This document shows, in pieces, positions 24,365 to 63,170 of a DNA stretch of 64,000 nucleotides; the stretch's first letter is position 1; each line of letters opens with the position of its first letter. The notes under the pieces are model-generated. The model did no database searches. It saw only the letters and a program-made list of their open reading frames with translations, and was not told where the DNA came from. This stretch comes from Squalus acanthias. Taxonomy: Eukaryota. The DNA lies in NCBI GenBank assembly GCA_030390025.1, contig CM059431.1, positions 102,984,001 to 103,048,000 on the forward strand. Direction: 5' to 3'. A program made the position numbers and the translations under genes.

Positions 24365-26205
24365 CATAGAAACGTAGAAACATAGAAGATAGGAGCAGGA
24401 GTAGGCCATTCGGTCCCTTGAGCCTGCTCCGCCATTCGATGAGATCATGGCTGATCATCCAAACTCAGTACCCTGTACCTGCCTTCTCCCCATATCCCTT
24501 GATACCTTTAGCTTTAAGAAATATATCTAACTCATTCTTGAATATATTTAATGATTTGGCCTCAACTACCTTCTGTGGTAGAGAATTCCACAGGTTCACC
24601 ACTCTCTGGATGAAGAAATTCTTCCTCATTTCTGTCCTAAATGGCTTACTCCTTATCCTTAGATTATGACCCCTGGTTCTGGACTCTCCGACCATCGGGA
24701 ACATTCTTCCTGCATCTAGTTTGTCCAGACCTGTCAGAATTTTATATGTTTCGATGAGATCCCCTCTCATTCTTCTATACTCCAGCGAGTATAAGCCTAA
24801 TCGACCCAATCTCTCCTCATATGTCATTCCTGCCATCCCAGGTATCAGCCTTGTGAATCTTCGCTGAACTCCTTCCATGGCAAGAACATCCTTCCTCAGA
24901 TAAGGCGACCAAAACTGCACACAGTACTCAAGGTGTGGTCTCACCAAGGCCCTGTACAACTGCAGCAGGACATCCCTGTTCTTATACTTAAACCCTTTCG
25001 CTATGAAGGCCAACATACCATTTGCCTTCTTCACCGCCTGCTGCACCTGCATGCTTACATTCAGCGACTGGTGCACAAGGACACCCAGGTCTCGTTGCAC
25101 TTCCCCTTCTCCCAATCTATTACCATTCAGATAATAGTCTGCCTTTCTGTTTTTGACACCAAAGTGGATAACCTCGCATTTATCCACGTTATATTGCATC
25201 TGCCACGCTTCTGCCCACTCACCCAACCTGTCCAAATCATCCTGGAGTTTCTCGGTATCCTCCTCGCAGCACACACGCCCACCCAGCTTTGTGTCATCTG
25301 CAAACTTGGAGATATTACATTTAGTTCCCTTATCTAGATCATTAATGTATATTGTGAATAGCTGGGGTCCAAGGACTGATCCCTGCGGTACCCCACTAGT
25401 CACTGCTTGCCACTCGGAAAAAGACCCATTAATTCCTATTCTCTGCTTTCTGTCCGCCAACCAGTTCTCTATCCAAGTCAATACCTTGCCCCCAGTCCCA
25501 TGTGCCTTAATTTTACACGCTAATCTCTTATGCGGGACCTTATCGAAAGCCTTTTGAAAGTCCAAATACACCACATCTACTGGTTCTCCCTTATCTATTT
25601 TCCCAGTTACATCCTCAAAAGATTCCAGTAGATTAGTCAAGCACGATTTACCTTTTGTAAATCCATGTTGACTTTGTCTGATCCTGTCACTGTTTTTCAA
25701 GTGCTCAGCTATTACATCCTTTATAATGGACTCTAGCATTTTCCCCACTACCGATGTCAGGCTTACCGGTCTGTAATTCCCCGCTTTCTCTCTACCACCC
25801 TTTTTGAATAGTGGGGTAACATTAGCTACCCTCCAATCCATGGGTAAAGTTCCAGATTCCATCGAATGTTGGAAGATGATCAGCAATGCATCTACTATTT
25901 CTAGGGCCACTTCCTTAAGTACCCTAGGATGTAGATTATCAGGCCCTGGGGATTTATCGGCCCTCAATCCCGTCAATTTCCCTAACACCATTTCCCTGCA
26001 AATACTGATTTCTTTCAGTTCCTCCCTTTCATCAGACCCTATGTTCTCCAACATCTCTGGGAGGTTATTTGTGTCCCCCTTTGTGAAGACAGAACCAAAA
26101 TATGCATTTAATTGGTCTGCCATTTCTTTGTTCCCCATTATAACTTCCCCCGCTTCTGACTGCAAGGGACCTACACTTGATTTCACTAATCTTTTTCTCT
26201 TCACA
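24365..26205 (-). mobile_element. 5'-truncated CR1 LINE, 1.84 kb
   Basis: catagaaa tail; continuous ORF2. Confidence 0.95.
24465..26205 (-). CDS. CR1 ORF2 reverse transcriptase, uninterrupted but lacking the endonuclease
   Basis: KSPGPD, NYRPVSLTSVVGK, YLDFQKAFDKVPH, GVPQGSVLGP, KFADDTKL, LVRPHLEYCVQFW. Confidence 0.93.
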
Positions 26206-26321
26206 TTCTTCTCCAGTGTTGCTTTAAAGAGGAATGTGATGAATATTTGGTTAAGAAATGTATTGGCAGTTATAGGGAGAATGATTTGCATCACATACCC
26301 TATGGAATACTTGGAAACGCT

Positions 26322-26645
26322 CCGAGACATCTGCGCTCCTCTAATTCTGGCCTCTTGAGCATCCCCGATTTCAATCTCTCCACCATTGGCGGCCGTGCCT
26401 TCAGCTGTCTGGGCCCTAAGCTCTGGAATTCCCTCCCTAAACCTCTCCACCTCTCCACCTCTCTCTCTCCTTCTTTAAGACACTCCTTAAAACCGACCTC
26501 TTTGGCCAAGCTTTTGGTCACCTGTCCCTAATATCTCCTTATGTGGCTCGGTGTCAAAGTTTGTTTGATATTCGCTCCTGTGAAGCACCTTTGGACATTT
26601 TACTACGTTAAAGGCGCTCTATAAATACAAGTTGCTGTTGTCGTT
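26322..26645 (+). mobile_element. L2 LINE 3' end
   Basis: TIGGRAFSCLGPKLWNSLP; aaaggcgctctataaatacaagttg tail. Confidence 0.85.
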
Positions 26646-27192
26646 GACTGCAGTCTTGCAGGGACTAAGTGGGAATGTCATCTGCGAACTGCAACTGTTC
26701 AGGGTTGAATAAGATGTATTACAATGTGAATTAGTAGCCTGAAGTTTTTTTGTTCGATTTGCTTTTTAAATTGGCTGGGATAGAGCTTGGCGAATACACG
26801 CACAACTTTAATCATGTTCTCTTTTCTTGAGATTTTACATCTTTTTGTTGCTCCTTTTCCCGAAGGTGGCTAAATAAGTCGGAGAGAGTTCAGGGAAGTG
26901 TAAATCTTGCACGGTACTTCAGAGGGAGTGGCTTACCCTTGCTTTTTGTGGCCGTTTCTCATTGTAAGCTTTCTTATGTTCATACATGTCTATCCCTATA
27001 GGCTTTCAACAGGAGGGGTCTGATGCCAGAGCGGAGGGATGGCGGCAGATATTTCCCCACAAACTATCAATACTGGATATTAGAGCTGTGTTGGCACCAT
27101 ATAATTTGCCCAGTTTATCAATGTATTTTACTATCTGCGCTTTCTTTCTTAATAGTTTTAGAATTTTCTTTTACTACTTTTTGAAAATCTCT

Positions 27193-27370
27193 ATTCATTC
27201 ATGGGATGTGGGCGTCGCTGGCAAAGCCCAGCATTTACTGACCATTCCCTAGTTGCCCTCGAGCAGGTGGTGGTGAGCTGCCTTCTTGAACCGCTGCAGT
27301 CCGTGTGGTGAAGGTGCTCCCACAGTGCTGTTAGGGAGGGAGTTCCAGGATTTTGACCCAACGACGATAA
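27193..27370 (-). mobile_element. LINE 3' end, family of 1-258
   Basis: Reverse complement match. Confidence 0.75.
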
Positions 27371-27820
27371 AGGATCGGTTGATATATTGCCACAGGATAT
27401 CTTTTCAGATCTTTGGCTCCTTTGATCTGAGGTCAGAAGAAGCTCTCTCTGTACCTGAGACTGCGCCAGCGGCAATCAGGAGGAAGCGTAAAAATCAATA
27501 ATAAATATGGTTAAAAAATTATGCAAGGATGGATTATGTTAAATATTACCACTTGAAATATTAAAGATTTTAATAATCCAGTAGAATTGCCAGAAATTCT
27601 AACTCAGTAGAAGGTGTTTGATTTTGCACTAGTCTAGGAGACTTGCATCAGATGTTAAAACTTCATAGAGATGACAAAAAATAACATGATTGTAAATTTT
27701 GTTCTTAAAATCGATCTTTTGTCTGAAAATCAAATAAATAAATGCCTTACTATTACAAGAAAGGTGTAGAAAGGGTCATCTTGAAAGTACCCTCACATGT
27801 GAGTCAGAAAGTTGTTGGTT

Positions 27821-28421
27821 CATAGAGTCATAACGGCACAGAAGGAGGCCATTCGGCCCATCGAGTCCGTGTCAGCTCTCTGCAGAGCAATCCAGTCAGT
27901 CCCATTCCCCCGCTCTATCCCCGTAGCCCTGCAAGTTTATTTCCCTCAAGTGCCTATCCAGTCTCCCCTTGAAAACGTTGAGTGACTCCGCTTCCACCAC
28001 TTCCATCGGCAGCGAGTTCCAGGTCCTCATAAATAGAGGTATTGAGTACAAAAGTAGAGAAGTTATGCTGATCCTTTATAAAGCGCTGGTTAGGCCACAA
28101 CTGGAGTATTGCGTCCAGTTCTGGTCACCACACTTTAGGGAAGGATGTGAAGGCCCTTGAGAGGGTGCAGAGGAGATTTACCAGAATGGTTCCGGGGATG
28201 GGGAATCTTAGCTACAAGGACAGGTTGGAGAAGTTGGATTTGTTTTCATTAGCGCAAAGGAGGTTGAGGGGTGATTTGATAGAGGTGTACAAAATTATGA
28301 CGGGTTTGGATAGGCTAGACGGGGAAAGGCTGTTCCCACTAGTTGATGGTACAAGGACTAGGGGACACAGATTTAAGGTTTTGGGCAAGAGATACAGGGG
28401 GGACGTGAGGAAAAACTTTTT
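27821..28421. mobile_element. CR1 with 5' inversion (27821-28027 minus, 28027-28421 plus)
   Basis: Both halves match adjacent parts of 5826-6503 in opposite orientations. Confidence 0.85.
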
Positions 28422-28479
28422 ACAAGTTAAATTCACACTCCAGGTTCTGAGCATGTAATCTTGCCTCACACTTCAACAA

Positions 28480-28917
28480 CAGGAAAGACTGGATAGGCTG
28501 GGTTTGTTTTCCTTGGAACAGAGGAGGCTGAAGGGAGACCTTATTGAGGTGTATAAAATTATGGGGGGAACAGATAGAGTGGATAGAAAGGACCTATTTC
28601 CCTTAGCAGAGGGGTCAAAAACCAGGGGGCACAGATTTAAAGTAATTGGTGGAAGGTTTAGAGGGGAGTTGAGGGGAAATTTCTTCACCCAGAGTGTTGT
28701 GGGGGGTCTGGAACTCACTGCCTGAAAGTGTGGTAGAGGCAGAAACCCTCATCACATTTAAAAAGTACTTGGATGTGCACTTGGGATGCTGTAACCTGCA
28801 GGGCTATGGACCAAGAGCTGGGAAGTGGGATTAGGCTGGATAGCTCTTTGTTGGCCGGCACGGACACGACGGGCTGAAATGGCCTCCTTCCGTGCTGTAA
28901 CTTTCTATGATTCTATG
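28480..28917 (+). mobile_element. CR1 3' portion, same subfamily as 1457-2234
   Basis: Near-identical to 1800-2234. Confidence 0.9.
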
Positions 28918-28919
28918 AA

Positions 28920-29118
28920 CAGCAACAACTTTGGTTTATTGAAAACCTTTAACATAGTAAAACGCCCCAAGGCGCTTCACAGGAGTGTCATCAAATATAT
29001 TTTGACACTGAGACACATAAGGAGATATTAGGACAGGTGACCAAATGCTTGGTCAGAGAGGGAGATTTTAAGAAGCGTTTTAGAAGAGGAGAGAGAGGTG
29101 CAGAGGTTTAGGGAGAGA
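28920..29118 (-). mobile_element. L2 3' tail
   Basis: Reverse match to 29880-30065. Confidence 0.75.
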
Positions 29119-29402
29119 ATGGTGCTGCATTGTTGGAGGTGATGTCCTTTGAATGAGATGTTAAACTGAGGCCCCCTGCATCTGCTCAGTTGGATGTGAA
29201 GGTCCCATGGTACTGTCTGAAGAAGAGCAGGAGTTTTTTGTTAAATGTTCTAGCCAACACTCTTTCCTCAACCACCCTCACCAATCGTTCATGTTGTATG
29301 CACAGTGACTGCACTTCAGAGTTATCACTTTGGGACCTCCTGAGAATATGGTGCAATATAAATGCAAGTTTTTTTTTCTCTAACAGTGCGAGTTGAATAG
29401 TT

Positions 29403-30065
29403 TAACCAAGACCGCCTACTTCCACCTCCGTAACATCGCCCGTCTCTGCCCCTGCCTCAGCTCATCTGCTGCTGAAACCCTCACTCATGCCTTTGTTACC
29501 TCTAGACTTGACTATTCCAACGCACTCCTGGCCAACCTCCCAACTTGCACCCTCCATAAACTGGAGCTCATCCAAAACTCTGCTGCCCGTATCCTAACTA
29601 GCACCAAATCCCGATCACCTATCACCCCCCTGTGCCCGCTGACCAACATTGGCTCCCGGTCCGGCAACGCTTCAATTTTAAAATTATCATCCTTGTTTTC
29701 AAATCCCTCCATGGCCTCACCCCTCCCTACCTCTGTAACCTCCTCCAGTCCTGCAACCCTCCGAGATCTCTGCGCTGCTCCAGTTCTGGCCTCTTGAGCA
29801 TCCCCGATTTTAATCGCTTCACCATTGGCGGCCGTGCCTTCAGCTGCCTGGGCCCTAAGCTCTGGAATTCCTTCTCTAAACCTCTCTGCCTCTCTCTCCT
29901 CCTTTAAGATGCTCCTTAAAACCTACCTCTTTGACCCAGCTTTTGGTCACCTGTCCTAATATCTCCTTAAGTGACTCGGTGTTAAATTTTGTCTGATAAT
30001 CGCTCCTGTGAAGCGCCTTGGGATGTTTCATGTTAAAGACGCTATATAAATGCAAGATGTTGGTG
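29403..30065 (+). mobile_element. L2 LINE 3' portion
   Basis: AYFHLRNIARL...HAFVTSRLDYSNALL...LELIQNSAARILT; HWLPV; WNS. Confidence 0.92.
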
Positions 30066-30082
30066 TTGAATATGGAGATGAT

Positions 30083-30939
30083 GGCTGCGATTTTCTCAGC
30101 AGTGTCGGGATGGGTGCGGGACGGCTGGTTTCCGGGTTCCGGTCCCGCCCCCAGCTGCCTCCGCTCCACAGACGTGATTTTTCCTTGATTGACTTTGTTA
30201 AGCCCGCCCTGCGGGCTTGCCGGCCAATTAACAGGAAGCGAGTCTGATGATGTCATTTGATGATGCATCATCTGCCGGTTTCCTTAAAGGGACCATGCAC
30301 AATTTTATTTTGACAGGTGATTTCTCAGTGTTTGACAGCATTGAGGTGCACAAAGGTGAACTCTTGCACCCAGGCTCTCCAATGACTCCCTCCATATGCT
30401 GGAATAGATGGCAGCTGCAGATGAGATGACAGAAGCGATCTGTCACTGGTGAGAGAGGTTCTCCCAATGAAGTGACACTGGACATACAGTTGGATTTAAA
30501 AACTTGTAAGCTAAAGAAATCTATATGTTTTAAAAATGCAGTAACCAACATTTTCTTTGCTCTGAAACTCACTATGTGCAACATGGCATCCTTCACACCA
30601 CTTCTGCAACTGTCATCTTTTCACAAACATTAGACCAGACTCACCAGACTCACAACATGCCACACTTACCTGGCGTGGTGTCCGGACGTCGGGAAACCCG
30701 ACCCAGAAGCGGGAAAATCCAAAACCAGGCTGACAACTACTGACAAGTACCTGTTAATAGGCAGGTAATTGACTTTAATCCGTTTCCCGCTGCTAGGCGT
30801 CGGGTCCATTCGCAAATTGGGGACCCGACACTTGGGAAAGCTGTTTGGAGGCGGGTTGACGGTGGGTTCGGGACCCGCCGTCAACCAATAGCACTTTAAC
30901 CTCTGACCCGCCTCTCTGAGCGCCGGCGAAATCGGGGCC
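30083..30939. mobile_element. Harbinger-type non-autonomous element related to 17688-19256
   Basis: TSD GAT both sides; TIR ggctgcgatttt / gaaatcggggcc; shares ccggtttccttaaagggaccatg and acagaagcgatctgtca. Confidence 0.8.
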
Positions 30940-31516
30940 GATGTACGTGTGCCCACTTTCTGGGATGCAGCTGAAGTTACCCGAAAAGTAAAATAATCTT
31001 ATTCTTCGTACAGGAAAGGAAGGATAGAGAAAGAGATTAAATCAATGGAATTAGAGATTTAAGAATTAAAGTAATCTCATACAATGTCAGGAGGTATTGC
31101 ACATCCTTAAAAAGAGATTTCAAGTAAATAATTTGCTGCTTTCTGGACTAAAATGATCTTATCAGAATACTGGCGAAGAATGCGTCCAGCAAGCTGGGTA
31201 ATCATCAGGACATCAATAAAGAGTGAGCTTAATGTTCCAGCAACTGAAAATCAGCGTGATATATTGGATACAGGATAGGGTTCAGTTATTCACTGAAAAA
31301 CAAACCAGGGGTACTGCTGCATTAGATAACCCAAGGGTCTGGAGACCAAAAGCAGCCATCAAAGTCCGATTCAGTCTACGGGGCATTTTCAGTAATCACC
31401 CCAGCGATCCCATTGCTGACGCTGCTTACACCGAGCGCGTACATCAACTTGATATGTATTAAATTAAATAGGTTATTTAAATCGAAAACAATATTGATTT
31501 TTTTTTGCAAACTCAC

Positions 31517-31624
31517 GGCCACAGGGATCAGCTGTCTGCGTCCTGACACATGCCAGTGGTGCTGTTGTACAGTAGCTACAGTAACATCAAGCACTGAAGC
31601 CTCTCGGTCTGTGACGAGCTGCAG
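31517..31624 (-). other. Candidate 108-nt internal exon, unidentified gene
   Basis: Long pyrimidine tract plus CAG, donor GTGAGT, one open frame LQLVTDREASVLDVTVATVQQHHWHVSGRRQLIPVA. Confidence 0.4.
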
Positions 31625-32299
31625 CTGCAGAAAGAGTGGAAGACAAAGGGAGGCTGAGAGGAAAAGTAAAAGATTGTGGTGAAAGAAAAAACAAACGCTC
31701 CAGAATTATAAAGGATTTGTACTAAAATTAGGTGAACATAGTTATTTACAATATCTGTTTTTCCTCTACGTTACAACAGCGACTACATTTCAAAAGTACT
31801 TCATTAGCTTTGAAGCACTTCGGAATGTCTTGAGGTCATGAAAGATGCCATATAAATTAAAGTTCGTTCTTTCTTTCTTTCTCTCTCTCTCTCAGGAGAT
31901 TATTAAACTCTTCTCTATGAGCGAAAAAGAAACCCATATAAAATTATATTTGCATGAAAAACAGAATGCCTCTTTTTTCTCTGCAATCAATGACCTTGCG
32001 GCTTTCAAATGCTTGATATCTGAGAAGTTGATTTTGTTAGCAGGTTATTAATTATGGAGAAAGACAGACATTCCCACTAAAGGCGGAATTATACCCCCTA
32101 GCTAAATAGAGAGATGTGAAGCCTAAGATATCTTGATAGACTTGCATGTAATGAATATTATCCCAGTCCTATCTTCACACAGCAGTACAATCCTTAGTTA
32201 AATATTGAAAAAAATACGTGATGTGATATTGCATCTTCCTGCTTTCTATGCACAGATCATAAATTATATTCTAGATATACAGATTGCATATCATTACAT

Positions 32300-32455
32300 A
32301 GATAAGAACAGAAGAAATAGGAGCAGGAGTCGGCCATTTGGCCCCTCGAGCCTGCTCCGCCATTCAATAAGATCGTGGCTGATCTTCTACCTCAACTCCA
32401 CTTTCCTGCACTATCCCCATATCCCTTGATTCCCTTAGTGTCCAAAAAGCTATTG
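32300..32455 (-). mobile_element. CR1 3' tail
   Basis: aataggagcaggagtcggccatttggcccctcgagcc. Confidence 0.8.
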
Positions 32456-33024
32456 AACTTGCATTTATATAGTCCCTTATTACATCTTTAGGAAGTCCCA
32501 AAGCATTTCAAAACCAATGCATTACTTTTGAAGTGCAGTTAGTGAGGTTATTACACACAAGGTCCCAACAAACAGCAATGAGATAATTGACCAGCTAATC
32601 TGATATTTTTTTGTGGGAGAAATGTTGGCCAGGATTCAAGGATGAAAGAAGAGCAGGGTATCTCGGAACTCCTTGCTCCCAATCTTGCCCTGCTTTTCTT
32701 CAAATAACGTCATAGGATCTTTTAAACCTAAGATGGGGAGTAATACCACCGACAATGATACAGGACTCGCTCAAGATAAAAATTCATCAATGTGAAAGAG
32801 TCTTCTATTTGTAGGATGAGTTAAAAGATAAAAGGGGGGGGACATCTTCATTTGAAGATTTATTTGGTCTTTTGCCTTTCGAAAAATGTTTCTTGCGACC
32901 CACGATTAAAATACTGGGCAAAGATGTCCTCTGTACACTGTGTGTCGCAAAATCATAAACCCATTCTTTAAGGATTTTCCCATACTCAGTGCCTATTGGG
33001 GAATTGGAGGCGAGGGGAAACTAT

Positions 33025-33871
33025 GGGCTGGATTTTCAATGACCCGTGGAGTCGGGTTTGGAGGCGGGGGGGGGGGGGTTAAAGTTGCAGATTCGGGGGT
33101 CCCGACCCCATCCCGCCTCCAACCCGCCTCCATGCCAGTTTCTCTGGCGGCGGGTACCCGACCTGGTCTGAGACCCGACTCCCCGAGGCGGGAAGGGATT
33201 AGTGACAATTAACTGCCTGTTAACAGGTAGTTAACAGGCAGTTTTTTGCATAATCCCTATTTTAAAAAGAAAAGTGTGGGCTTCCCGACAGGTGGCTACC
33301 ATGCCAAGTTATCGGGTCGGGCCATGGGTCTGCAGGGGTTGGAGGGGTCGATATGTCCGGTGGGCAGGTGAGTGATGGGTGCATGTGTGCAGAGGTAAGT
33401 GTGTAAGGTAAGTGCTAAGTGTTGGAAAAAGTTTTACTTACCTTAACTTCCTCCTGCAAGTGTCAGCCCTTCAGTTCTCGGGAGTCAGAAATCTCACCGG
33501 CACAGAAAGCAGGAAAGCCGTGGTTCTGTCAAATACTGCAGCCTTCTGTTTTCTGTGCTGGAATGATTTCTAACTCAGCCTGAGAGGAAGGACTGAAGTT
33601 AGAAATCATATTGTCAGTGTTTGACAGCTTCACAGAGCTGTCAAACGCTGATATTTCATCTGTCAAAAGCTCTTGACAGATGAAATGTCAGTCTGTGACG
33701 TCACCTGTTGCCGGGTGGCCCTTAATTGGCCTGCTGAGCCCACTGGGCGGGCTCAACAAGGTCAATCAAGGGAAAATACAGTGGGTTGGCCACATCTCGA
33801 TGGAGGCGGGTTCACAAGCCAGAATGTGTGATTCCCGACCCCAACCCGACCCCAGATTCAAAATCCAGCCC
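33025..33871. mobile_element. Harbinger-type MITE
   Basis: Perfect 12-bp TIR gggctggatttt / aaaatccagccc; TSD TAT both sides. Confidence 0.85.
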
Positions 33872-34024
33872 TATCAGTGCTGAAGTTAAGTCCAGAAAAA
33901 AACTATTGAAGAGAAACCCAGGCTCCTGAAACACTTCCATTCAACATACAAAATGTTGATTACATAGAATGTTTCAGATCTGAACCAGGCCATTCGGCCC
34001 AACCGATAGGGTCATGCCTTTGCT

Positions 34025-34831
34025 TTTAAAGTTTCGTAAAAAAAAAAAATCGTAATTTTTACTATAATGGATAAATTTGACACTCCACAAAATTAAAATT
34101 AGTTTTTTCAGGGCCATAATGTTTGTTCAGCAGTCAATACCAGTTACACCGAATCCAACAAGGTCTAACTTTTGACGGGGTGTTTAACAGCGATATTCGA
34201 GCGGATAAGCCCAAGTTTTCATCAGTTTCCCTGATTGCACTGATTGCCGGCTGTGGACGGAGGGGTGGGGGGGGGAGGGGGGGGGGATTCCACAGCGCAG
34301 CCAGTGTCGGAGCAGTGAATGACTGACCCGCAACTTCAGGGTTTCCACGTTAGGATGCGCAGGCGCTACATCCTGAAGTTGTGCTCAGTTTCAAGGAAAG
34401 AAAGAAAGACTTGCATTTCTACAGCGCTTTTCACAACCACCGGACGTCTCAAAGCACTTTACAGCCAATGAAGTACTTTTTTGGAGTGGAGTCACTGTTG
34501 TAATTTAGGAAACGTGGCAGCCAATTTGCGCACAGCAAGCTCCCACAAAAACAGCAATGTGATAATGACCGGGTAATCTGTTTAGTGATGTTGATTGAGG
34601 GATAAATATTGGCCCAGGACACCGGGGAGATCTCCCCCTGCTCTTCTTCGATATAGTGGTTTGGAATCTTTTACGTCCACCTGAGAGGGAAGATGGGGCC
34701 TTGGTTTAACGTTTCATCCGAAAGACGGCACCTCCGACAGTGCAGCACTCCCTCAGCGCTGCACGGAGCAAAGGGGTAATAACAGTGAGTGCTGTTCGTT
34801 CGCTGTTACTACCCACCGCATATTCTGGGCC
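34025..34831. mobile_element. MITE remnant (14224 family) containing a DeuSINE at 34396-34762 (-)
   Basis: Ends gcatattctgggcc|aat; internal similarity to 14600-14900. Confidence 0.6.
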
Positions 34832-34877
34832 AATGCACTGTGTAGATGAAATAAAAATAATTTAGCGCTTGGAACTA

Positions 34878-35965
34878 AAGAAAGAAAGAATTTGCATTTC
34901 TATAGCACCATCACAACCTCAGGACATCCCAAAACGCTTTACAGCCAATGTAAGTATCATTACAACTTTTGACTGTTGTAATCTAGGAAATGTGGCAGCC
35001 AAATGCGCACAGCAAGCTCCCACAAACATGTGATAATGACCAGATAATCTGTTTTAGTGATATTGGTTGAGGGATAAATTTTGGCCAGGACACCAGGGAG
35101 AACTGGCTGCCCGTGTCCTAACTCGCACCAAGTCCTGTTCGCCCATCACCCCTGTGTTCGCTGACTTTCATTGGCTCCCGGTTAAGCAACACCTCGATTT
35201 TAAAATTCTCATCCTTGTTTTCAAATCCCTCCATGGCCTCGCCCCTTCCTATCTCTGTAATCTCCTCCAGCCCTATAATCCCCCGAGATATCTGCGTTCC
35301 TCTAATTCTGCCCTCTTGAGCATCCCTGATTATAATCGCTCAACCATTGGTGGCCGTGCCTTCTGTTGCCTCGGCCCTAAGCTCTGGAATTCCCTGCCTA
35401 AACCTCTCCGCCTCGCTACCTCTCTCTCCTCCTTTAAGACGCTCCTTAAAACCTACCTCTTTGACACAGCTTTTGGTCATAAAATCATAGAATGGTTACA
35501 GCACGGAGGAAGGCCATTCGGCCTGTCGAGCCCGTGCCGGCTCTCTGCAAGAGCACCTCAGCTAGTCCCACTCCCCCGCCCTTTCCCTGTAGCCCTGCAA
35601 ATGTTTTTCTTTCAGGTACTTATCCAATTCCCTTTTGATATCTCCTTATGTGGCTCAGTGTCAAATTTCTTATCTTATAATACTTCTGTGAAGTGTCTTG
35701 GGACGTTTAACTATGTTAAAGGCACTATATAAATACAAGTTGTTGTTGTTGTTCTTCTTCTTCTTCAAAATAGTGCTATGGGATCTTTTACATCCACCTG
35801 AGAGGGGAGATAGAGCCTGGTTTAACCTCTCATCGAAAAGATGGCACCTCCGACACTCCCTCAGTACTGCACTGAGAATGTCCGCCTGGATGTTGTGTTC
35901 AAGTCGCTGGAGAGGGACATGAACCCATAACTCTTCGGTGAGAGTGCTTTCTACTGAGCCACGGC
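34878..35965. mobile_element. Nest: DeuSINE (-) split by L2 (+, 35104-35752), itself split by a CR1 tail (-, 35483-35638)
   Basis: Each host resumes after its insert; explains chimeric ORF 35067-35732. Confidence 0.8.
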
Positions 35966-36387
35966 TTTGGCTAGGACAAGAAGAAAAGCTAAGGTTCCCT
36001 TTTCACTATTGATTTTGGTTCTCCAGAACAAAATTCTGATCTCTGATGCAGGAATACATATGAATGCGAACAGACGAACAATGACAGACAGGTAAAGACA
36101 CTCTGGTCCATCCAGCCTGTTCCACACAATTGCGATACCTTGTGTATCACAACATATACACTCTCCACCCCACCCGAAACCATGGGATCTCCTGGGAGAG
36201 GCAAAAAAAACCCAGATAAAAATACCCAATGGCCAATCTGGGGGAAAGATAATCTGGGAAATTCCTCTCCGACCCATCTTGGCGATGGAAACTAGTCCAG
36301 GAGATCACTCTGGCCCTGAATTCCCTGCAGTACCTTCCTTCTGTAAGAGGTGATCTCCGCCTCAGCTCTCGCTTGAAGGAATTCAGC

Positions 36388-37800
36388 GAATATAAACTAA
36401 AGGGTACAATCCTAAAGGGGGTGCATGAACAGAGAGACCTGGGGGTATATGTGCACAAATCGTTGAAGGTGGCAGGGCAGGTTGAGAAAGCGGTTAAAAA
36501 AGCATACGGGATCCTGGGCTTCATAAATAGAGAGGTCGCACAACACCAGGTTATAGTCCAACAGTTTTATTTGAAATCACAAGCTTTCGGAGCTTACTAC
36601 TCCTTCGTCGGGTGAAGTAAAAAGATACAGAATCGCCAAAGCATATATAGATAGAGAACAATGCATGTGTACCTTACAATTGCAGACAACTAAATTAAAT
36701 CATCCTGACTATCTGCCGAGGTGTGATAAAGTTAATCAGGTCAGCCAGGAAGGTACCACATCAAAGACATAGCAAGATACAACTGAGACAATGAGGTGGA
36801 GTCGCAGGGGGTCTAACATGTCAAAAGCTGCCGTCTGTATGTAAAACGAAAAGCTTTAAAATTTTTACTTTTTTACTGGGAAAATTTTTACTTTTTTACT
36901 GGGAATCACATCTGTGAACAAGCCAACGACGACTCGAGTCCGGATCACGTCATGTATCGTGACATAAACCCAAGATCCCGGTTGAGACCGTCTTCATGAG
37001 TGCGGAACTTGGCTATCAGTTTCTGCTCGATGATTTTGCGTTGTCGTGTGTTCCTAAGGTTGCCTTGGAGAACGCTTACCCGCAGATCCGAGGCTGAATG
37101 TCCTTGACTGCTGAAGTGTTCCCCGACTGGGAGGTAACAATCCTGCCTGGCGATTGTTGCGCGGTGCTCGTTCATACGTTCATAAATAGAGGCATAGAGT
37201 ACAAAAACAAGGAAGTTAGATGAACCTTTATAGAACACTGGTTTGGCCTCAACTGGAGTATTGTGTCCAATTCTGGGCACCGCACTTTAGGAAGGATGTG
37301 AAGGCCTCAGAGAGAGTGCAGAAAAAATTTACAAGAATGATTCCAGGGATGAGGGACTTCAGTTACGTGGATAGACTAGAGAAGCTGGGGTTGTTCTCCT
37401 TAGAGCAGAGAAGGTTGAGGGGAGATTTAATAGAGGTGTTCAAAATCATGAGGGGTCTGGACAGAGTAGATAGAGAGAAACTGTTCCCATTGGCGGAAAG
37501 GCCGAGAACCAGAGGACACAGATTTAAGGTGGTTGGCAAAAGAACCAAAGGCGACATGAGGAAAAACTTTTTTATGCAGTGAGTGGTGGTGATCTGGAAT
37601 GCGCTGCCTGATAGGGTGGTGGAGGCAGACTCAATCGTGGCTCTCAAAAGGGAATTGGATAAGTACCTGAAGGAAATTTTTTTTGCAGGGCTATGGGGAA
37701 AGGGCGGGGAGAGTGGGACTAGCTGAAGTGGTCTTGCAAAGAGCCAGCACGGGCTCGAGGGACTGAATGGCCTCCTTCTGTGCTGTAACCATTCGATGAT
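36388..37800 (+). mobile_element. CR1 split by a Penelope-like insertion
   Basis: EQRDLGVYVHKSLK...GILGFINR, resuming after 37191. Confidence 0.9.
36533..37178 (-). mobile_element. Penelope-like element 3' end (family A)
   Basis: RMNEHR...PVGEHFSSQGHSASDL...EQKLIAKFRTHEDGLNRD; 13-bp TSD ttcataaatagag (36520-36532, 37179-37191). Confidence 0.88.
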
Positions 37801-40784: not shown

Positions 40785-41606
40785 TTATGATCTGAAATTG
40801 TTGAACTCGATGTTGAGTCCAGAGGGCTGTAGCGTGCCTAAACGAAAGATGAGGTGCTGTTCCTCGAGCTTACGCTGAGCTTCCGTGGAACAATGCAAGA
40901 GGCCGAGGACGGTGAGGTCTGAGTGGGAGTGAAGCAGTGAATTAAAGTGACAGGGCACCGGGAGCTCGGGGTCCCCCTTGCGGACTGAACGGAGGTGTTC
41001 CGCAAAGCGGTCACCCAATCTGCGTTTGGTCTCCCCAATGTAGAGGAGACCACATCGTGAGCAGCGAATACAGTATACTAAATTGCAGGAAGTACAAGTA
41101 AATCGCTGTTTCACCTGGAAGGGGTGTTTGGGGCCCTGGACAGTGGGAAGGGTGGAGGTATAAGGGCATGTGTTGCATCTCCTGCGCTTGCACGGGAAGG
41201 TGCCGGGCGAAGGGGAAGGGGTGCTGGGGGTGGTAGAGGAGTGGACTAGGGTGTCGCGGAGGGAGCGGTCCCTGCGGAATGCTGAAAGGGGAGGTGAGGG
41301 GAAGATGCGTTTGGTGGTGGGATCACGCTGGAGGTGGCGGAAATGGCGGAGGATGATCCGTTGAATGTGGAGGCTGGTGGGGTGAAAGGTGAGGACAAGG
41401 GGAACTCTATTGTGGTTCCGGGAGGGAGGGGCAGGGGTGAGGGCAGAAGTGCGGGAGATAGAACGGACACGGTCGAGGGCCGTGTCAACCACCGTAGAGG
41501 GGAATCCTCGGTTGAGGAAAAAGGAAGACATGTCGGAAGCTCTGGTATGGAAGGTGGCATCGTCAGAGCAGATGCGGCGGAGACGGAGAAACTGGGAGAA
41601 TGGAAT
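40785..41606 (-). CDS. Penelope ORF C-terminus: RT thumb plus GIY-YIG endonuclease, 5'-truncated
   Basis: FLNRGFP, PLVLTFHP, PCKRRRCNTC, NLVYCIRCSRCGLLYIGETKRRLGDRFAEH, EQHLIFRLGTLQPSGLN. Confidence 0.9.
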   Translation of the reverse strand: MPFSQFLRLRRICSDDATFHTRASDMSSFFLNRGFPSTVVDTALDRVRSISRTSALTPAPPSRNHNRVPLVLTFHPTSLHIQRIILRHFRHLQRDPTTKRIFPSPPLSAFRRDRSLRDTLVHSSTTPSTPSPSPGTFPCKRRRCNTCPYTSTLPTVQGPKHPFQVKQRFTCTSCNLVYCIRCSRCGLLYIGETKRRLGDRFAEHLRSVRKGDPELPVPCHFNSLLHSHSDLTVLGLLHCSTEAQRKLEEQHLIFRLGTLQPSGLNIEFNNFRS

Positions 41607-41784
41607 AGAGAACAGGGAACAGGTTTCAGGGAATAGGTTTCAAGTACTGCTATAAAACAGAACTTTACCTTGGAATTAGGAATTATTTTAAAGCAAAGGT
41701 GGAATATTTTTCACTTTCCATTCATTTCAATGCAAGCTGAGTTTGCAAAACCGAATGTCAACAAATGAGACGAAAACAAATCGT

Positions 41785-49689: not shown

Positions 49690-50860
49690 GTGGAATTTTC
49701 TACCACAGAAGGCTGTGGAGGCCAATTCATTGAATATATTTAAGAGGGAGATAGATAGATTTCTAGACACAAAAGGCATCAAGGGGTATGGGGAGAGAGC
49801 GGGAATATAAGAACATAAGAACATAAGAAATAGGAGCAGGAGTAGGCCAATCGGCCCCTCGAGCCTGCTCCGCCATTCAATAAGATCATGGCTGATCTGA
49901 TCCTAACCGCCAATCTACTATCTATCACAGAACCATCTCCTGCATCTAACAGAATTGCACACACGAAATAGGAGCAGAATCAGGCTACACAGTCCCTGGG
50001 CCCGCTCCACTACCCACAGGGCCATGACCGATCCGAACCTAGACTCATGTCCAAATTCCTGCCCGCTCCCCGTAACCCTTAATGCCCTTTACTTCTAGGA
50101 AACTGTCTATTTCTGTTTTAAATTTAATTAATGTTGTAGCTTCTACAGCTTTTTGTGGCAGCATATTCCATGGACCTACCACCCTCTGAGTGAAGTAGTT
50201 CCTCCTCATCTCAGTTTTGAAAGAGCAGCCCCTTATTCTAAGACTATGTCCCCTAGTTCTCGTCTCACCCGTCATCGGGAACATCCTCCCCGCATCCACC
50301 CGATCCAACCCCTTCACAATCTTATATGTTTCAATAAGATCGCCTCTCATTCTTCTGAACTCCAATGAGTAGAGTCCCAATCTACCCAACCTCTCCTCAT
50401 ATGACCACCCCCTCATCCCCGGGATTAACCGAATGAACCTTTTTTGCACTGCCTCGAGAGCAAGGATGTCTTTCCTTAAGTAAGGACACCAAAACTGTAT
50501 GCAGTATTCCAGGTGCGGTCTCACCAATACCTTGTACAACTGAAGCAATACCTCCCTATTTTTATATTCTATCCCCCTAGCAATGAAAGCCAACATTCCA
50601 TTTGCCTTCTTAATCACTTGCTGCACCTGCATACTAACCTTTTGAGTTTCGTGCACCAGGACCCCCAGATCCCTTTGCACTTCAGTACTCTCCAGTTTCT
50701 TGCCATTAAGATAATAAATTGCTCTAGGATTTTTCCTGCCAAAGTGCATATATATGGTATTGAGATAGAGGATCAGCCATGATCATATTGAATGGCGGAG
50801 CAGGCTCGAAGGGCCGAATGGCCGACTCCTGCTCCTATTTTTCTATGTTTCTATGTTTCT
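49690..50860. mobile_element. CR1 (-, 49808-50750; ORF 50045-50749) nested in a CR1 tail (+)
   Basis: Host gggaatat|ggtattgagatagaggatcagcc rejoins across the insert. Confidence 0.88.
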
Positions 50861-52904: not shown

Positions 52905-54065
52905 CATAAGAACATAAGAAATAGGAGCAGGAGTAGACCACACGGCCCCTCGAGCCTGCTCTGTCATTCAATAAGATCGTGGCTGATCTTCGACCTCAAC
53001 TCCACTTTCCCGCCTGATCTCCACATCCCTTGATTCCCCATGAGTCCAAAAATCTATCTATCTCAGCCTTGAATATACTCAAAGACTCAGCATTCACAGC
53101 CCTCTGGGGCAGAGAATGCCAAAGATTCACAACCCACTGAGTGAAGAAATCCCTCCTCATCTCGGTGATCAAGAAAGCCAATGGAATGTTGGCTTTTATT
53201 GCTAGGGGGATAGAATATAAAAACAGGGAGGTATTGCTGCAGTTGTATAGGGTATTGGTGAGACTGCACCTGGAGTACTGCATACAGTTTTGGTGTCCAT
53301 ACTTAAGAAAAGACATACTTGCTCTCGAGGCAGTACAAAGAAGGTTCACTCGGTTAATTCCGGGGATGAGGGGGTGGACATACGAGGAGAGGTTGAGTAG
53401 ATTGGGACTCTACTCATTGGAGTTCAGAAGAATGAGAGGCGATCTTATTGAAACATATAAGATTGTGAAGGGGCTTGATCGGGTGGACGCGGTGAGGATG
53501 TTCCCAATGATGGGTGAAACTAGAACTAGGGGACATAATCTTAGAATAAGGGGCTCCTCTTTCAAAACTGAGATGAGGAGAAACTTTTTCACTCAGAGGG
53601 TAGTGGGTCTGTGGAATTTGCTACCCCAGGAAGCTGTGGAAGCTACTTCATTAAATAAATTTAAAACAGAAATAGACCGTTTCCTAGAAGTAAAGGGAAT
53701 CAGGGGTTACGGGGAGCGGGCTGGAAATTGGACATGAGTTTGAGTTTGGATCGGTCAAGGCCCTGTGGGTGGCGGAGCGGGCCCAGGGGCCGAGTGGCCT
53801 GGTCCTGCTCCTACTTCTTGTGTTCTTTAGAGTTGAGGTTGGATCAGATCAGCCATGATCTCATTGAATGGCGGAGCAGGCTCGAGGGGCCGATTGGTCT
53901 ACTCCTGCTCCTATTTCTTATGTTCTTATGTTCTTAAATGGCCGACCCCTTATCCTGAGACTATGCCCCCTGGTTCTAGACACTCCAGCCAGGGGAAACA
54001 ACCTCTCAGCATCTACCCTGTCAATCCCCCTCAGAATCTTGTAAGTTTCAATGAGATCACCTCTT
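52905..54065. mobile_element. CR1 (+, 53164-53935; ORF to 53737) nested in a CR1 (-)
   Basis: Host ctcctcatctcg|tcttaaatggccgacccc rejoins. Confidence 0.88.
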
Positions 54066-58182: not shown

Positions 58183-58640
58183 TGAATGGTACCAGGGATG
58201 GTGGACTTCAGTTACACGGAGAGAAGCTGGGATCGTTCTCCTTAGAGCAGAGAAGGGTAAGGGGAGATTTAATAGAGGTTTTCAAAATTACAAGGGATTT
58301 TGATAGAGTAAGTAAGAAGAAACTGTTTCCACTGGCAGGAGGGTCGGTAACCAGAGGACACAGATTTAAGGTGATTGGCAAAAGAACCAGACGGGAGAGG
58401 AGGAGAATTTTTTTTACACAGTGCCTTGTTATGATCTGGAATGCACTGCCTGAAAGAGTGGTGGGAGCAGATTCAATGGTAACTTTCAAAAGGGAATTGT
58501 ATAAATACTTGAAAAGGAAAAAATTTGCAGGGCGATGGGGGAAATAACAGGAGGGAGTGGGACTAATTGGAGAGCTCTTCCAATGAGCCAGCACAGGCAC
58601 AATGGGCCAAATGGCCTCCTTCTGTGCTGTACGACTCTAT
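58183..58640 (+). mobile_element. CR1 3' portion
   Basis: FSLEQRRVRGDLIEVFKI...WNALPERVV. Confidence 0.88.
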
Positions 58641-58785
58641 GAAGACACTATTAAGACATGGCATGCCACCACCACAGATGCCACCACCTCAGAGCAGTAG
58701 CTCTATGTTACCATCCACATTAACTTTAAAGATAAAAAACTGTGACCTTATAAAACCTTGACCTGAATGGATCACAAGTTCCCAG

Positions 58786-59953
58786 TGTAAGGTTTCCAAA
58801 ATTTGCAGATCCCCAAAACCTAAGGAAAAAGGCCAGAGTGACAAAAATGCATTTGGGCCTAACATAAGGAATTTAAGACCAAAAACCAAGTTTTGGCATT
58901 TTAAAAGACATGTCTGGACCTGTAAGGGAGAAAAGGCTGCACAGGAGGTGGGTTCAACCTCTGTAAATAGCAGTTTTGGGTATTGCAGTTAAATTGCATT
59001 GTCTGGGAATCGGGATGACCTCACTCAAGCCCCAGCAAGCATTAACATTTGGACAATAGGCCCTGGGAGAAGGCAGCCCCACCCAAAACACAGAACCCAT
59101 TAAAGACATGCATAAAGATAGGAGTCCTGGGCCCAGCAAGAAACCCAAAACATGAGGACAATGCAAACTCCGATTAAACAACAGATCGTAGGATGGAGAA
59201 CCACTTCACACATTTACAAAACCAGTTAACATGCTAGTAGAGTCGTTACTGTTAACAAGGTCTTACAATGACCAGGATTTGATTTGGTTTTGACCAGGCC
59301 ACTTCAGTTTAGTATAATTGAAGGCCCATCAAGCAGTTACAACAGTTCAGTAAGAAGGGAGTTCAAGTTCAACAGAATTCAAAGCCTGTGTTGAACAGAG
59401 GACAAGCAGGCAGAAGGCAGTTCCACAGCTCGGAAGAAGACAGTTTAAACAGAGGCAGAGTTACAGCAAGAAGTTAAACAAAGAAGGCCAACAACTTCAC
59501 AAGCAGACCGACACGCAAGAAGAAACCAGAGCGACTGCCTCAGTGACCATCGGACACCTCGCGGCAACAAGAGCCTCACGAAACCTTTTACTCAAAAGAC
59601 TCTAAACCCTAACTCTAAACTGTCAAGGATTCGTTTGGTGAGCATTATCCCTGGTTCTCCAGAGTCCAACCTAGCTAGTGAAGTGGGATTGGGAGGGGTG
59701 AAGTATTCTTCTAATGTTATTTCCCTTGCCTGTACCGTGTGTTCCCCACCTTTAGAGTGTTAAGTGTGTTTTAAGTTTGTTACCTTCTTTTCTTGTTAAT
59801 AAAGTCAAAACTCTTTAATCAAAACCTGTTGTCTACTGCATCTTTGTTCACAACCCCCAAATAAGTCCAAGGTCTAGAACCAGGGGCATGGGAGCGATTC
59901 GAACCGCTCACTGAGTCAGAGGTGAACCTGACCCCCACACACCACCCCCTACA
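58786..59953 (+). mobile_element. Solo LTR, 1168 bp, family of 7916-9423
   Basis: TGTAAGG...CCCTACA; CCAG on both sides; TATAATT near 59313, AATAAA 59798. Confidence 0.88.
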
Positions 59954-59957
59954 CCAG

Positions 59958-61663
59958 TGTAAGGGTTTTTGTCTCTCAGCCTGTGAGATTCGTGTGGCTC
60001 TGTGCAGCCCAGGTGCTAGTGCGGGTTTAGGCCTTGTTGCCTGTTCTGGTCTCCAGCCAGTCTGGGAGCACTATACACACCTGTGAGTGGTTCGACCCAC
60101 TCGCCCTTACGGTTCTAGACACTGGACTTAGATGCGAGAGCAATAATGGAGATGAAACTCAGGTAGACTCGGTTGAATGGTACGAAATGGAAAATCTTTA
60201 TTGCATAATATTTAAGATTACGAAATACATGTCATAAGCACAGATTAATGACAGTACAATCTTACACGCAGTTATGTAACTAATTTCAGGGAAACGAGGA
60301 ACGAACGACACATCGTAAATGGGGGCACGCATTACAATTATCCTTAATACTTAAAACCCTCCCCTATCAATATCTGTCCTAAGCTAGATTCGTAGGATTC
60401 GAGACTCATGCTCACCACTCGTGATAACTCGGAGAATTCCGAAAACTCTGATCGGATATTTTTCACCGCAGCGCCCACGTGTCGATCAGGGGGTCTCCTG
60501 GCCCCACTTGTTTACTCATTTCTGCTCCGGCTAGCAGGCTGGAACGTCTGCTGTCATGAAGATCTGTGTTGTCCTCGGAGTTCCGACTATACTCAAAAAA
60601 GAGTCTTCCTGTGCCCTCGCACGGATGCGATAGAATTCGAAAAATAGTCTTCCTGGCAGTTCTGTAAAACTCGAAGAAGTCTTCCTGGCAAGGAAAATGT
60701 CTATTCGACCTACAGGCGCGGTCGGAGCTTACTGACCGTGGCGATAAGTATGGTCTTCTTCTCTTTTCATCTTATCTCATCTCATCTTATCTCATCTCAT
60801 CTCATCTCGTCTCGGGCCTTCGGTTCCAACACCGTTTACCGACTTATCGGGATGGTGCGCCCGCTTCAAGGCTTCAGAGCCCAGTTCTACACAGGTCTTC
60901 GCGACACGACCCGGGGTAGATCTGAGCGGATCGTAAAGTTCAACAGTCTTTTGAAAAGAGACACGAGGCAAGCAGGAACAAGACGGCGAGTCAAGAGCAG
61001 CTACGAGGATAAAAGTCAACCGAATAAGAGAAAGATGGACGGTTTGGGGCTTGCAATTATAGTGCAAAATCTTCCGTTTCCCGCCCAACCTTAATGTCTT
61101 TTCTTTTGTTAGGGTTTGGCGCTCAAATGTCTTGTATAGGGTGATCTCCGTTTTAATGGGTTTCGGGGCTACTCGTAAATGTCTGAGTACCTGTTAATAT
61201 TTCTCCCATTGTTTAATCGGTCGGTGTTCTCCCTGGAGGGGTTTTGGGGCTTCCAAGTGTTTTCTGTAACTACCCGCTAACGGCTCTCTCATCGTAGAGT
61301 CGTTGGGATTTTACATATTAATGTCTTTGGATGGGTTCTTGATTACTTGGTACAATAGCTTTTATTCGTACCTGGGAGACCGATTTCAGTATTTATGTGT
61401 ATACTGTAAACCCATGATGTCTCGTGTATTATCTTAAATGTGCTGAGTCTTAATCGATCTTGCACAAATGTTTATTGGAACGCCATCTTGTCTGCCTGTC
61501 GAAAAATCTAGAATGTTCTGTCACGAGGTGCGGCGGCCATTTTACAAGCTGCTTGTGTCCACTTTGAAAACCTGACAGCATTCTGCTGAAATAAAAGCTG
61601 TTTGAACGAAACTATGTGTTTTCCTCCTTATTAATAAAATCGCGATATATTGCGAATTCTACA
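59958..61663 (-). mobile_element. Solo LTR, 1706 bp, distantly related family
   Basis: TGT...ACA; CCAG on both sides; minus-strand AATAAA near 60200; shared terminal hairpin block; (ATCTC)n at 60766-60813. Confidence 0.8.
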
Positions 61664-61964
61664 CCAGTGACCTTCACACCATCATGGAGATCTTTTGTAT
61701 TTGAAGCCCACAGAGCAAACGGCCGACAGCATGTGAAACCATTCCATCCTTGCTACTCCGTCATAATTCTAGCACACCAATGGAAAATTAGTTTAAAGAA
61801 CCTCATGAATATTTATTTAACAGGGCAAACCTGCACCTCATGCTGTGGAACAAGATTGATTTTTCTTGTGTTACGGTGCTCACATTGAACTTTGTGTTGA
61901 GGTTAGCACTAGTGCAAGCTCCAGCTATCGGGTGTCCCCGTTAATATTTAATTTGAGCAACGGT

Positions 61965-63170
61965 TTATATTTGCGTAGAATATAAGAGCAGGGAGGTTAC
62001 GCTTGAACTGTATAAAACACACTGTATGGACCTTGTACAGCAGGCACCTCAAAGCACTGGAGAGGTAACACCAACGTTGCCTCCGCAAGATAGGCGCGCC
62101 AATGTCAATGTTCTCGCTCAGGCCAACATCCCCAGCATCAAAGTTTTGATCAGCTCTGATGGACCGGCCACATCGTCCGCATGCCTGATACGAGACTCCC
62201 AAAACAAGCGCTCTACTCTGAGCTGCGACACGGCAAGAGAGCCCCAGGTGGGCAGAGGAAATGCTTCAAGGACACCCTCAAAGCCTCCTTGAAAAAGTGC
62301 AACATCCCCACCAACACCCGGGAATCCCTGGCCCAAGACCGCACAAAGTGGAGGAGAAGCATCCGGGAAGGCGCCGAACACCTCGAGTCTCTTCGCTGGG
62401 AGCAAGCGGAAGCCAAGCGCAAACAGCAGAAGGAGCGCACGTCAACCCAAGCACCCCACCCACCCGACCCTTCAACCACCGTCTGCCCCACCCGTGACAG
62501 AGACTGTAGGTCCCGCATTGGACTCATCAGTCACCTGAGAACTCATTTTTAGTGTGGAAGCAAGTCATCCTCAGTTCCGAGGGACTGCCTAAGAAGAAGT
62601 ATAAAACACTAGTTAGGCCACAGCTAGAGAATTGAATACAGTTCTGGTCACCACATGACAGGAAGGATGTGATTGCCCTAGAGAGGATACAGAGGAGATT
62701 TACGAGGGTGTTGCCTGGGCTGGAGAATTTTAGCTATGAGGAAAGATTGGATAGGCTGGGGTTGTTTTCTTTGAAACAGAGGAGGCTGAGGAGAGACTTG
62801 ATTGAGGTGTATAAAATTATGAGGGGCCTAGATAGAGTGGATAGGAAGGACCTATTTCCCTTAGCAGAGAGGTCAATAACCAGGGGGCATAGATTTAAAG
62901 TAATTGGTCGAAGGATTAGAGGGGAGTTGTGGAGAACTTTTTTCACCCAGAGGGTGGTGGGGATCTGGAACTCACTGCCTGAAAGGGTGATAGAGGCAGA
63001 AACCCTCATCACATTTAAAAAGTGCTTGGATGTGCACTTGAAGTACCGTAACCTACAGGGCTACGGACCAAGAGCTGGAATGTGGGATTAGGCTGGATAG
63101 CTCTTTCTCGGCCGGCACAGACACGATGGGCCAAATGGCCTCCTTCTGTGCCGTAAACTTCTATGATTCT
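61965..63170 (+). mobile_element. CR1 split by an RTE insertion
   Basis: ORF 62669-63091; host rejoins at gtataaaacac. Confidence 0.88.
62021..62598 (+). mobile_element. RTE-clade LINE 3' end
   Basis: MPDTRLPKQALYSEL..GKRAPGGQRKCFKDTLK..AQDRTKWR..GLISHLRTH; (AAG)n tail; 11-bp TSD gtataaaacac (62010-62020, 62599-62609). Confidence 0.88.

Follow-up and report, generated by a model that had tools for sequence, protein, structure and literature searches.

How does one 4-bp genomic site come to hold two different retrovirus-like long terminal repeats (LTRs)? The question is raised by a locus in a 64,000-nucleotide stretch of the Squalus acanthias genome (GCA_030390025.1, contig CM059431.1, positions 102,984,001 to 103,048,000 of the forward strand), called here the window and used for all coordinates. 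Two solo LTRs, LTR-A of family A and LTR-B of family B, lie there between three copies of CCAG. The answer that we consider probable is a sequential double insertion, in which family A came first and family B then integrated on the right-hand duplication that A had made.

Two solo LTRs at a triplicated 4-bp site

The window sequence carries CCAG in triplicate, at 58782-58785, 59954-59957, and 61664-61667. The left and middle copies enclose LTR-A (58786-59953, plus strand), a 1,168-bp unit of the form TGTA...TACA, and the middle and right copies enclose LTR-B (59958-61663, minus strand), a 1,706-bp unit that reads TGTA...TACA on its own strand. All of these coordinates agree with those of the first-pass annotation, which had been made from the letters of the window. 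The junction at 59950-59961 reads TACA-CCAG-TGTA, with the termini of both LTRs intact; a middle 4-mer of independent origin would agree with the left and right copies with a probability of 0.0046. The two LTRs are of different families, their best mutual match being 52 nucleotides (nt) at 75% and all further likeness being confined to short motifs. A series of TATA-like, donor-like, AATAAA, and shared 3' motifs runs from left to right in LTR-A (59313, 59636, 59798, and 59862) and from right to left in LTR-B (61061, 60417, 60202, and 60130), indicating that the 3' ends face each other, tail to tail.

A scan of the window for TGT...ACA units bounded by a 4-bp repeat returned 74 candidates, of which 18 had the form TGTA...TACA. 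The end pattern by itself is therefore weak proof of an LTR, and it is copies elsewhere that fix the ends. One such copy, A2 (7916-9423, minus strand, 1,508 bp), was recognized by sequence comparison as a separate family-A solo LTR. It lies in an (AT)n run and is flanked by a 4-bp duplication of its own, ATAT. Its termini are those of LTR-A, to which it is 83% alike over the first 319 bases and 81% alike over the last 336. A2 thus serves as an internal control that fixes both the ends of LTR-A and the 4-bp length of the duplication. Between the kept ends, the middles of the two family-A LTRs are strongly divergent in length and sequence.

LTR-A, A2, and LTR-B all have TG...CA ends with a duplication in the 4- to 6-bp range of solo LTRs. 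They belong to dispersed families with constant ends and varying flanks, as seen in A2 and in the contigs described below (records 21 and 22 of run X4 and the joints of run X1 at 58786 and 59957). Promoter and polyadenylation motifs occur in order, and no coding domain was found; the Pfam scan gave no family for the two longest frames of LTR-B and one frame of A2, the LTR-A frames, all below 110 amino acids, lying outside it. Termini, motif order, and copies elsewhere together support the description of two different solo LTRs placed tail to tail at one 4-bp site.

Other readings of the site were ruled out. A 6-bp duplication, CCAGTG, is rejected because A2 and the contigs of relatives place the TG within the LTR ends. 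A fixed specificity for CCAG is incompatible with the ATAT of A2 and with the flanks ATGA and GTGG found elsewhere, and a tyrosine-recombinase array is incompatible with the varied 4-bp targets and the TG...CA ends.

Alleles, ends, and abundance in relatives

Contigs of 4 of the 24 listed public runs were aligned to positions 58400-62100 at 85% likeness, and the results given here are drawn from the listed share of the output, which was 15 joints out of 195 and 32 pieces out of 145,736. In organism J, a more distant relative, a 505-nt contig (run X24, record 15) places letters 1-342 on 61664-62005 and letters 343-505 on 58613-58781. The two flanks abut with a single CCAG, indicating an empty site and fixing the 5' end of LTR-B at 61663. 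An empty site with one CCAG, which the first-pass annotation had suggested as a check, is therefore present in a relative. Together with the three CCAG copies and the TACA-CCAG-TGTA junction, it bears out the proposal that the second element lies exactly in the target duplication of the first. The left flank of the LTR pair contains a 15-bp tandem duplication (58663-58693). Across 58613-58781 the alignment of the X24 contig includes 18 gap letters, so the duplication may be absent in organism J.

In organism A, the closest relative, a 387-nt contig (run X4, record 23) follows the right flank to 61659, differing from the window at 9 of 362 unique-flank letters, and then runs on for 22 unaligned letters to its end, as contigs do where they run into a repeat. 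Among six candidate neighbors of this flank, an empty site predicts a stop at 61664, an A 5' end or a B 3' end predicts a stop at 61660, and a B 5' end predicts none. A stop at 61659 is predicted only by the 3' ends of LTR-A and A2. From this one contig stop we infer, with good confidence, that organism A has an allele carrying LTR-A only at this site. Run X6, whose unique flanks were without cover, and record 8 of run X1, which ends at 61689 before the junction, were uninformative. Over 61689-62005 the unique right flank of the LTR pair differs by about 2.5% from organism A at positions common to two samples, and organism J has the letter of organism A at most of them; organism A therefore probably represents another species or population than the one sampled in the window.

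The ends of both LTRs also occur beside other flanks. Records 21 and 22 of run X4 part from the window sequence precisely at 59953 and continue for 30 and 32 unmatched letters, respectively. Joints in run X1 connect a CR1 tail to the 5' end of LTR-A at 58786 and CR1 at 58460 to the 3' end of LTR-B at 59957/59958. Both termini of the junction, 59953 and 59958, are accordingly set by other copies. The median summed depth was about 3,700 to 4,300 times that of the unique flank for LTR-A and about 24,000 to 37,000 times for LTR-B (organism A), a difference of about 7- to 9-fold. These unlike depths and the joining of the ends to other flanks indicate that LTR-A and LTR-B move separately. In a rough check, the neighboring CR1 tail reached a depth of 110,000 to 120,000; with 3 such stretches at 85% likeness or more in the window, this would fit a genome of about 2 to 3 Gb. 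That 59958-61663 is a repeated unit with these ends, a point that the first-pass annotation had left to be checked, is seen from its high depth, from the joint with CR1 at 59957/59958, and from the end at 61663 given by the empty site.

Family B appears to be the younger of the two. Depth for LTR-B in organism J is about zero over 60384-61623, in its 5' three quarters, a simple repeat excepted, and the observed/expected CpG ratio of LTR-B is 0.98, compared to 0.53 for A2 and 0.30 for LTR-A; it is the missing depth in organism J and the undecayed CpG content that indicate the younger age. The simple repeat has a five-base unit in 9.4 copies (60767-60813). In organism J the 3' parts of LTR-A and LTR-B are found at depth and the 5' parts hardly. 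With the divergent middles of the family-A LTRs, this pattern suggests that the 5' portion of the LTR undergoes modular turnover. The 5' end of LTR-B had 0 matches in metagenome contigs.

A proposed sequential double insertion

The locus is one original CCAG entered by two high-copy LTR families, each with a stagger of 4 bp, that do not move together. In the history that we propose, an element of family A would first have integrated at a unique host site, the one that is empty in organism J, and its 4-bp stagger would have duplicated CCAG. By established biology, recombination between its two LTRs would then have reduced it to a solo LTR. At a later time family B, which is related to family A but younger and far commoner, would have contributed a provirus that integrated in reverse orientation exactly on the right CCAG of LTR-A, producing the third copy; the structure left by this step is observed, and its timing is read from one contig. 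The family-B provirus would likewise have become a solo LTR. With LTR-A already resident, the target of family B would have been CA-CCAG-TG. The first-pass annotation had named this symmetric target on condition that A came first, and that condition is favored by the contig stop at 61659, the order itself being inferred.

The site could be struck twice because insertion copies its target instead of consuming it, and because family B would have inserted tens of thousands of times into a genome already dense with LTR ends. Each LTR would leave behind two sites that a related integrase had once accepted, and if central pyrimidine-purine steps such as that of CCAG are weakly preferred, the odds may rise slightly. 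The stacking is real but rare, and high copy numbers with an ordinary weak target preference can explain it without special targeting.

Chance versus target choice

The expected number of exact re-hits was calculated as the number of B insertions, multiplied by duplication copies per base and by a preference factor. We assumed a density of older LTRs of 1 or 2 in every 64 kb, as found in the window, 3,000 to 37,000 B copies, and a factor of 1, 1.63, or 4. The value 1.63 is the mean enrichment of a central pyrimidine-purine step for four retroviruses with 4-bp duplications in the data given by Serrao et al. (2015; PMC4422553). Across 24 settings, 0.09 to 9.25 re-hits are expected per genome, and in the 12 settings with 25,000 to 37,000 B copies the range is 0.78 to 9.25. 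One such site per genome is unremarkable if most of the genome is surveyed; chance is a poor explanation if only some hundred windows are. The caution of the first-pass annotation that a single locus cannot exclude chance was the right reading.

All four of the 4-mers found adjacent to family-A or family-B ends (CCAG and ATAT, and ATGA and GTGG, each known from one side) have a central pyrimidine-purine step, compared to 22% of the background (naive p of 0.0024, post hoc). Compared to the target consensus of prototype foamy virus, the A2 site fits at 10 of 10 positions, the empty site of LTR-A at 7 of 10, and the LTR-B site at 5 of 10.

Several points weigh against a double insertion by chance with A first. 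With 3,000 B copies the expectation falls to 0.09 to 0.75, and the abundance of family B is known here as summed depth, which is no copy number. Two of the four pyrimidine-purine 4-mers are one-sided and one comes from an ambiguous joint, and the test was post hoc. The 5/10 fit of LTR-B is at the background level outside the 4 bp, so that target preference contributes little and chance has to carry most of the explanation. The A-only allele of organism A comes from one listed piece, in which the 22 loose letters are unread; the single-LTR allele that the first-pass annotation had hoped for in relatives is thus probable, on the match of the stop at 61659 to its prediction. The left LTR-A junction of organism A was not among the pieces listed, and the left-flank bin 58648-58771 was partly covered in runs X1 and X4 (depths of 2.0 and 2.7 versus 15.8 and 10.3). 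All evidence from relatives' contigs is limited to the small listed share of joints and pieces.

To an attraction of the B integrase to the ends of resident LTRs, whether by a preference for CA-NNNN-TG or by way of an antisense B-box in the unique 5' region (U5) of family A, we give about one chance in ten. The first-pass annotation had raised such targeting, and the data do not favor it. None of six other termini (two of A2, two A 3' ends, one A 5' end, and one B 3' end) abuts an LTR end, no joint among those listed links two LTR ends, the other B end lies in CR1, and chance already predicts about one such site per genome at plausible copy numbers. Targeting of LTR ends is therefore unlikely, with only one other B end as direct evidence; given that one end and the listed tables, an enrichment of 10- to 100-fold would still be compatible.

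The better of the two routes, though improbable, is an integrase of family B that prefers a symmetric CA-NNNN-TG, half of which every LTR end supplies, so that re-hits would rise well above chance. Of five symmetric pairs at the target, three are present in CA-CCAG-TG with A in place and two were present before A, and 8-mers of this form make up 0.5% of the background. The other B site, at the CR1 joint (58460), would also have TG to the right of its 4-mer, if the CR1 of the window stands for that copy. However, it has no CA at its left and no LTR. The site struck by LTR-B has C and G where known 4-bp integrases favor T at -2 and A at +5 in the data given in PMC4422553, and an account of nested LTR elements in plants states that LTRs are not commonly targeted (PMC6911290).

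Order of events

The order of insertion is not given by the window sequence alone. Family B could have come first and A could have entered the left duplication of B; alternatively, two haplotypes, one entered by A and the other by B, could have crossed over within the 4 bp, or organism A could have received a third, unrelated insertion at the site. The unread letters of X4 record 23 and the left junction of organism A, which is not listed, leave room for such histories. However, the stop at 61659 is the one that a 3' end of A type predicts, and family B is the younger by its depth in organism J and its CpG content. Four base pairs of homology are also a poor substrate for crossing over. We regard these histories jointly as improbable, slightly more so than a symmetric target preference, and retain the insertion of A before B.

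LTR motifs, the U5 hairpin, and possible tethering

LTR-A carries a TATA-like motif (59313-59320, plus strand) in common with A2 and LTR-B, a putative polyadenylation signal AATAAA (59798-59803, plus strand), and a U5 motif (59862-59909, plus strand) that is common to all three LTRs and ends in a hairpin. The corresponding features of LTR-B, all on the minus strand, are the TATA-like motif at 61054-61061, the presumed polyadenylation signal at 60197-60202, and the shared U5 motif with its hairpin at 60089-60130; promoter and signal functions are predicted from the letters. A conserved donor-like 10-mer stands between the TATA-like motif and the polyadenylation signal in LTR-A, A2, and LTR-B. 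The distance between these two motifs is about 480 bases in LTR-A (59313-59803) and about 850 in LTR-B (60197-61061), which implies an unusually long repeat (R) region.

The loop of the U5 hairpin is complementary to the T-loop of transfer RNA (tRNA), and its opposite strand reads as a B-box (59896-59905 in LTR-A, 60089-60098 in LTR-B, and 7962-7971 in A2). The B-box-like 10-mer lies 49 nt (LTR-A), 47 nt (A2), and 132 nt (LTR-B) from the 3' end of its LTR and is read in antisense; elsewhere in the window it had 0 matches. The three U5 regions folded no better than shuffled sequences (z of -0.63 for LTR-A and of +0.77 and -1.20 for the other two), and therefore only a local hairpin is claimed. 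The shared U5 motif had 0 matches in metagenome contigs and 0 in viral contigs.

This motif admits a tethering explanation, in which the antisense U5 B-box of family A recruits TFIIIC and TFIIIB and thereby guides a Ty3-like intasome to a point just outside the 3' end of A. At the spacing of a tRNA gene, position +1 for this B-box would fall in the duplication. Ty3 itself uses the start site, which is upstream of the end of the mature tRNA and some 10 to 15 bp further out than the duplication here, so that the spacing looks 10 to 15 bp too short. The described behavior of Ty3, which inserts within about 20 bp of the 5' ends of tRNA genes via TFIIIB and TFIIIC (PMC6673722), makes such guidance conceivable. 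However, ARAGORN found 0 tRNA genes in the window, and Rfam gave no tRNA match at E values up to 10 over 58700-61750. The Rfam search returned 0 matches at gathering score over the whole window, and the 5 weak matches at E up to 10 over 58700-61750 were all below gathering score and none was tRNA. The one other B end listed lies in CR1, which speaks somewhat against an RNA polymerase III tether. More simply, the hairpin motif may be the U5 complement of the T-loop of the primer tRNA, a pairing proposed for avian sarcoma virus in the relevant part of PMC3185550. Tethering is accordingly very improbable, well below a symmetric target preference. The motif suggests that families A and B are tRNA-primed and retrovirus-like rather than self-priming Gypsy elements, and a foamy-like label is plausible for both.

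As improbable as tethering, the 2.9-kb block might be one composite mobile element or an assembly artefact, as the whole also reads TGTA...TACA between CCAG flanks and no contig among those listed spans the A-CCAG-B junction, but A2 and records 21 and 22 of run X4 stop at 59953, the X1 contig starts at 59957/59958 from CR1, the depths of the two LTRs are about 7- to 9-fold apart, and an artefact is not expected to write a third exact duplication. A composite element, and with it the joint movement of the block that the first-pass annotation had held open as an outcome that would overturn its reading, is contradicted by these separate ends and unlike depths.

Comparison with known systems

The arrangement is of a known kind, a double insertion, differing from published cases in that two families are involved, both copies are solo LTRs, the host is a vertebrate, and relatives have an empty and a probable intermediate allele. 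Dimers of transposable elements formed by double insertion have been described in Drosophila melanogaster, including an inverted pair of Rover LTRs (McGurk and Barbash 2018; PMC5932611; 10.1101/158386). In its account of the Rover pair, that paper reports that the junction contains a palindromic motif of 6 nt, which agrees with a double insertion (PMC5932611). The present locus shares with these dimers the intact termini, the one target duplication in the junction, and a target that was kept and copied by the first insertion. In contrast to the Drosophila cases as presented in that paper, where one family and a clear site preference are involved, the vertebrate locus here holds solo LTRs of two families that share only short motifs. 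Its three copies of the duplication are all intact, and no strong preference is evident from ATAT, CCAG, and the one-sided ATGA and GTGG. Three marks of a dimer are found, namely, intact junction termini, a junction copy equal to the outer duplications, and two independent insertions. Unlike families, depths, and species ranges indicate the independence, as do the empty site of organism J and the A-only allele inferred for organism A.

The target consensus of prototype foamy virus, KWK\VYRBMWM, is reported by Serrao et al. (2015; PMC4422553), whose comparison also covers Moloney murine leukemia virus (MoMLV), porcine endogenous retrovirus (PERV), and XMRV (the virus related to xenotropic murine leukemia virus) as viruses with 4-bp integrases. 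Both families resemble these viruses in the 4-bp duplication, in the fit of CCAG and ATAT to VYRB, in the central pyrimidine-purine step, and in the complete fit of the A2 site. The LTR-B site and the empty site of LTR-A fit the consensus incompletely, and the families are known here from LTRs rather than from an integrase. A 4-bp duplication with a VYRB core is present, but the 4-bp duplication also occurs in gammaretroviruses, as given in PMC4422553, and is not diagnostic. Foamy-like endogenous retroviruses of fish and sharks, in the description given by PMC5512871, have long TG...CA LTRs with short duplications. Families A and B are similar in both respects, as far as they are known from LTRs alone; no primer site, pol, or env was seen for either.

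In plants, tandem LTR retrotransposons that share an LTR are described as head-to-tail arrays of one family without an inner duplication (PMC11899658). The likeness lies in adjacent LTR sequence inside one outer duplication, whereas the pair here is inverted, comes from two families, and has the duplication in the junction. A tandem formed by recombination through a shared LTR was ruled out by these same features. With Ty3, as portrayed in PMC6673722, the locus shares position-exact integration and a B-box-like motif near the site, but it differs in the lack of a tRNA gene in the window, in the other B end in CR1, and in a spacing that looks too short.

In the literature searched, which left most subscription papers outside, no description was found of a two-family solo-LTR pair with a triple duplication. 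The locus is a clean three-state example (empty, inferred A only, and A plus B) of target reuse between two vertebrate LTR families and is useful for ordering the bursts of families A and B. It is also a warning that such blocks could be mis-annotated as one 2.9-kb LTR. Were an excess of such junctions true, a retrovirus-like integrase of vertebrates would be seen to choose its targets by a rule that is new. If attraction of B to LTR ends were true, the endogenous retroviruses of this lineage would stack on each other's duplications as a harmless landing site.

Surroundings of the LTR pair

The LTR pair is surrounded by fragments of long interspersed nuclear elements (LINEs). The repeats suggest a large vertebrate genome rich in CR1, probably that of a cartilaginous fish. 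Among LINE-type repeats at 24465-26474 on the minus strand, a 669-codon open frame encodes a reverse transcriptase domain (PF00078, E of 5e-34). A frame at 17807-18433 on the plus strand has a Myb/SANT-like domain (PF13873, E of 3e-06), and one at 40785-41639 on the minus strand has a weak GIY-YIG match (PF01541, E of 2e-04, under the cut-off); we take these two to be remnants of Harbinger and Penelope type, respectively. Two inverted LINE fragments of 659 nt (49959-50617 and 53165-53823), 2.5 kb apart, are 90% complementary.

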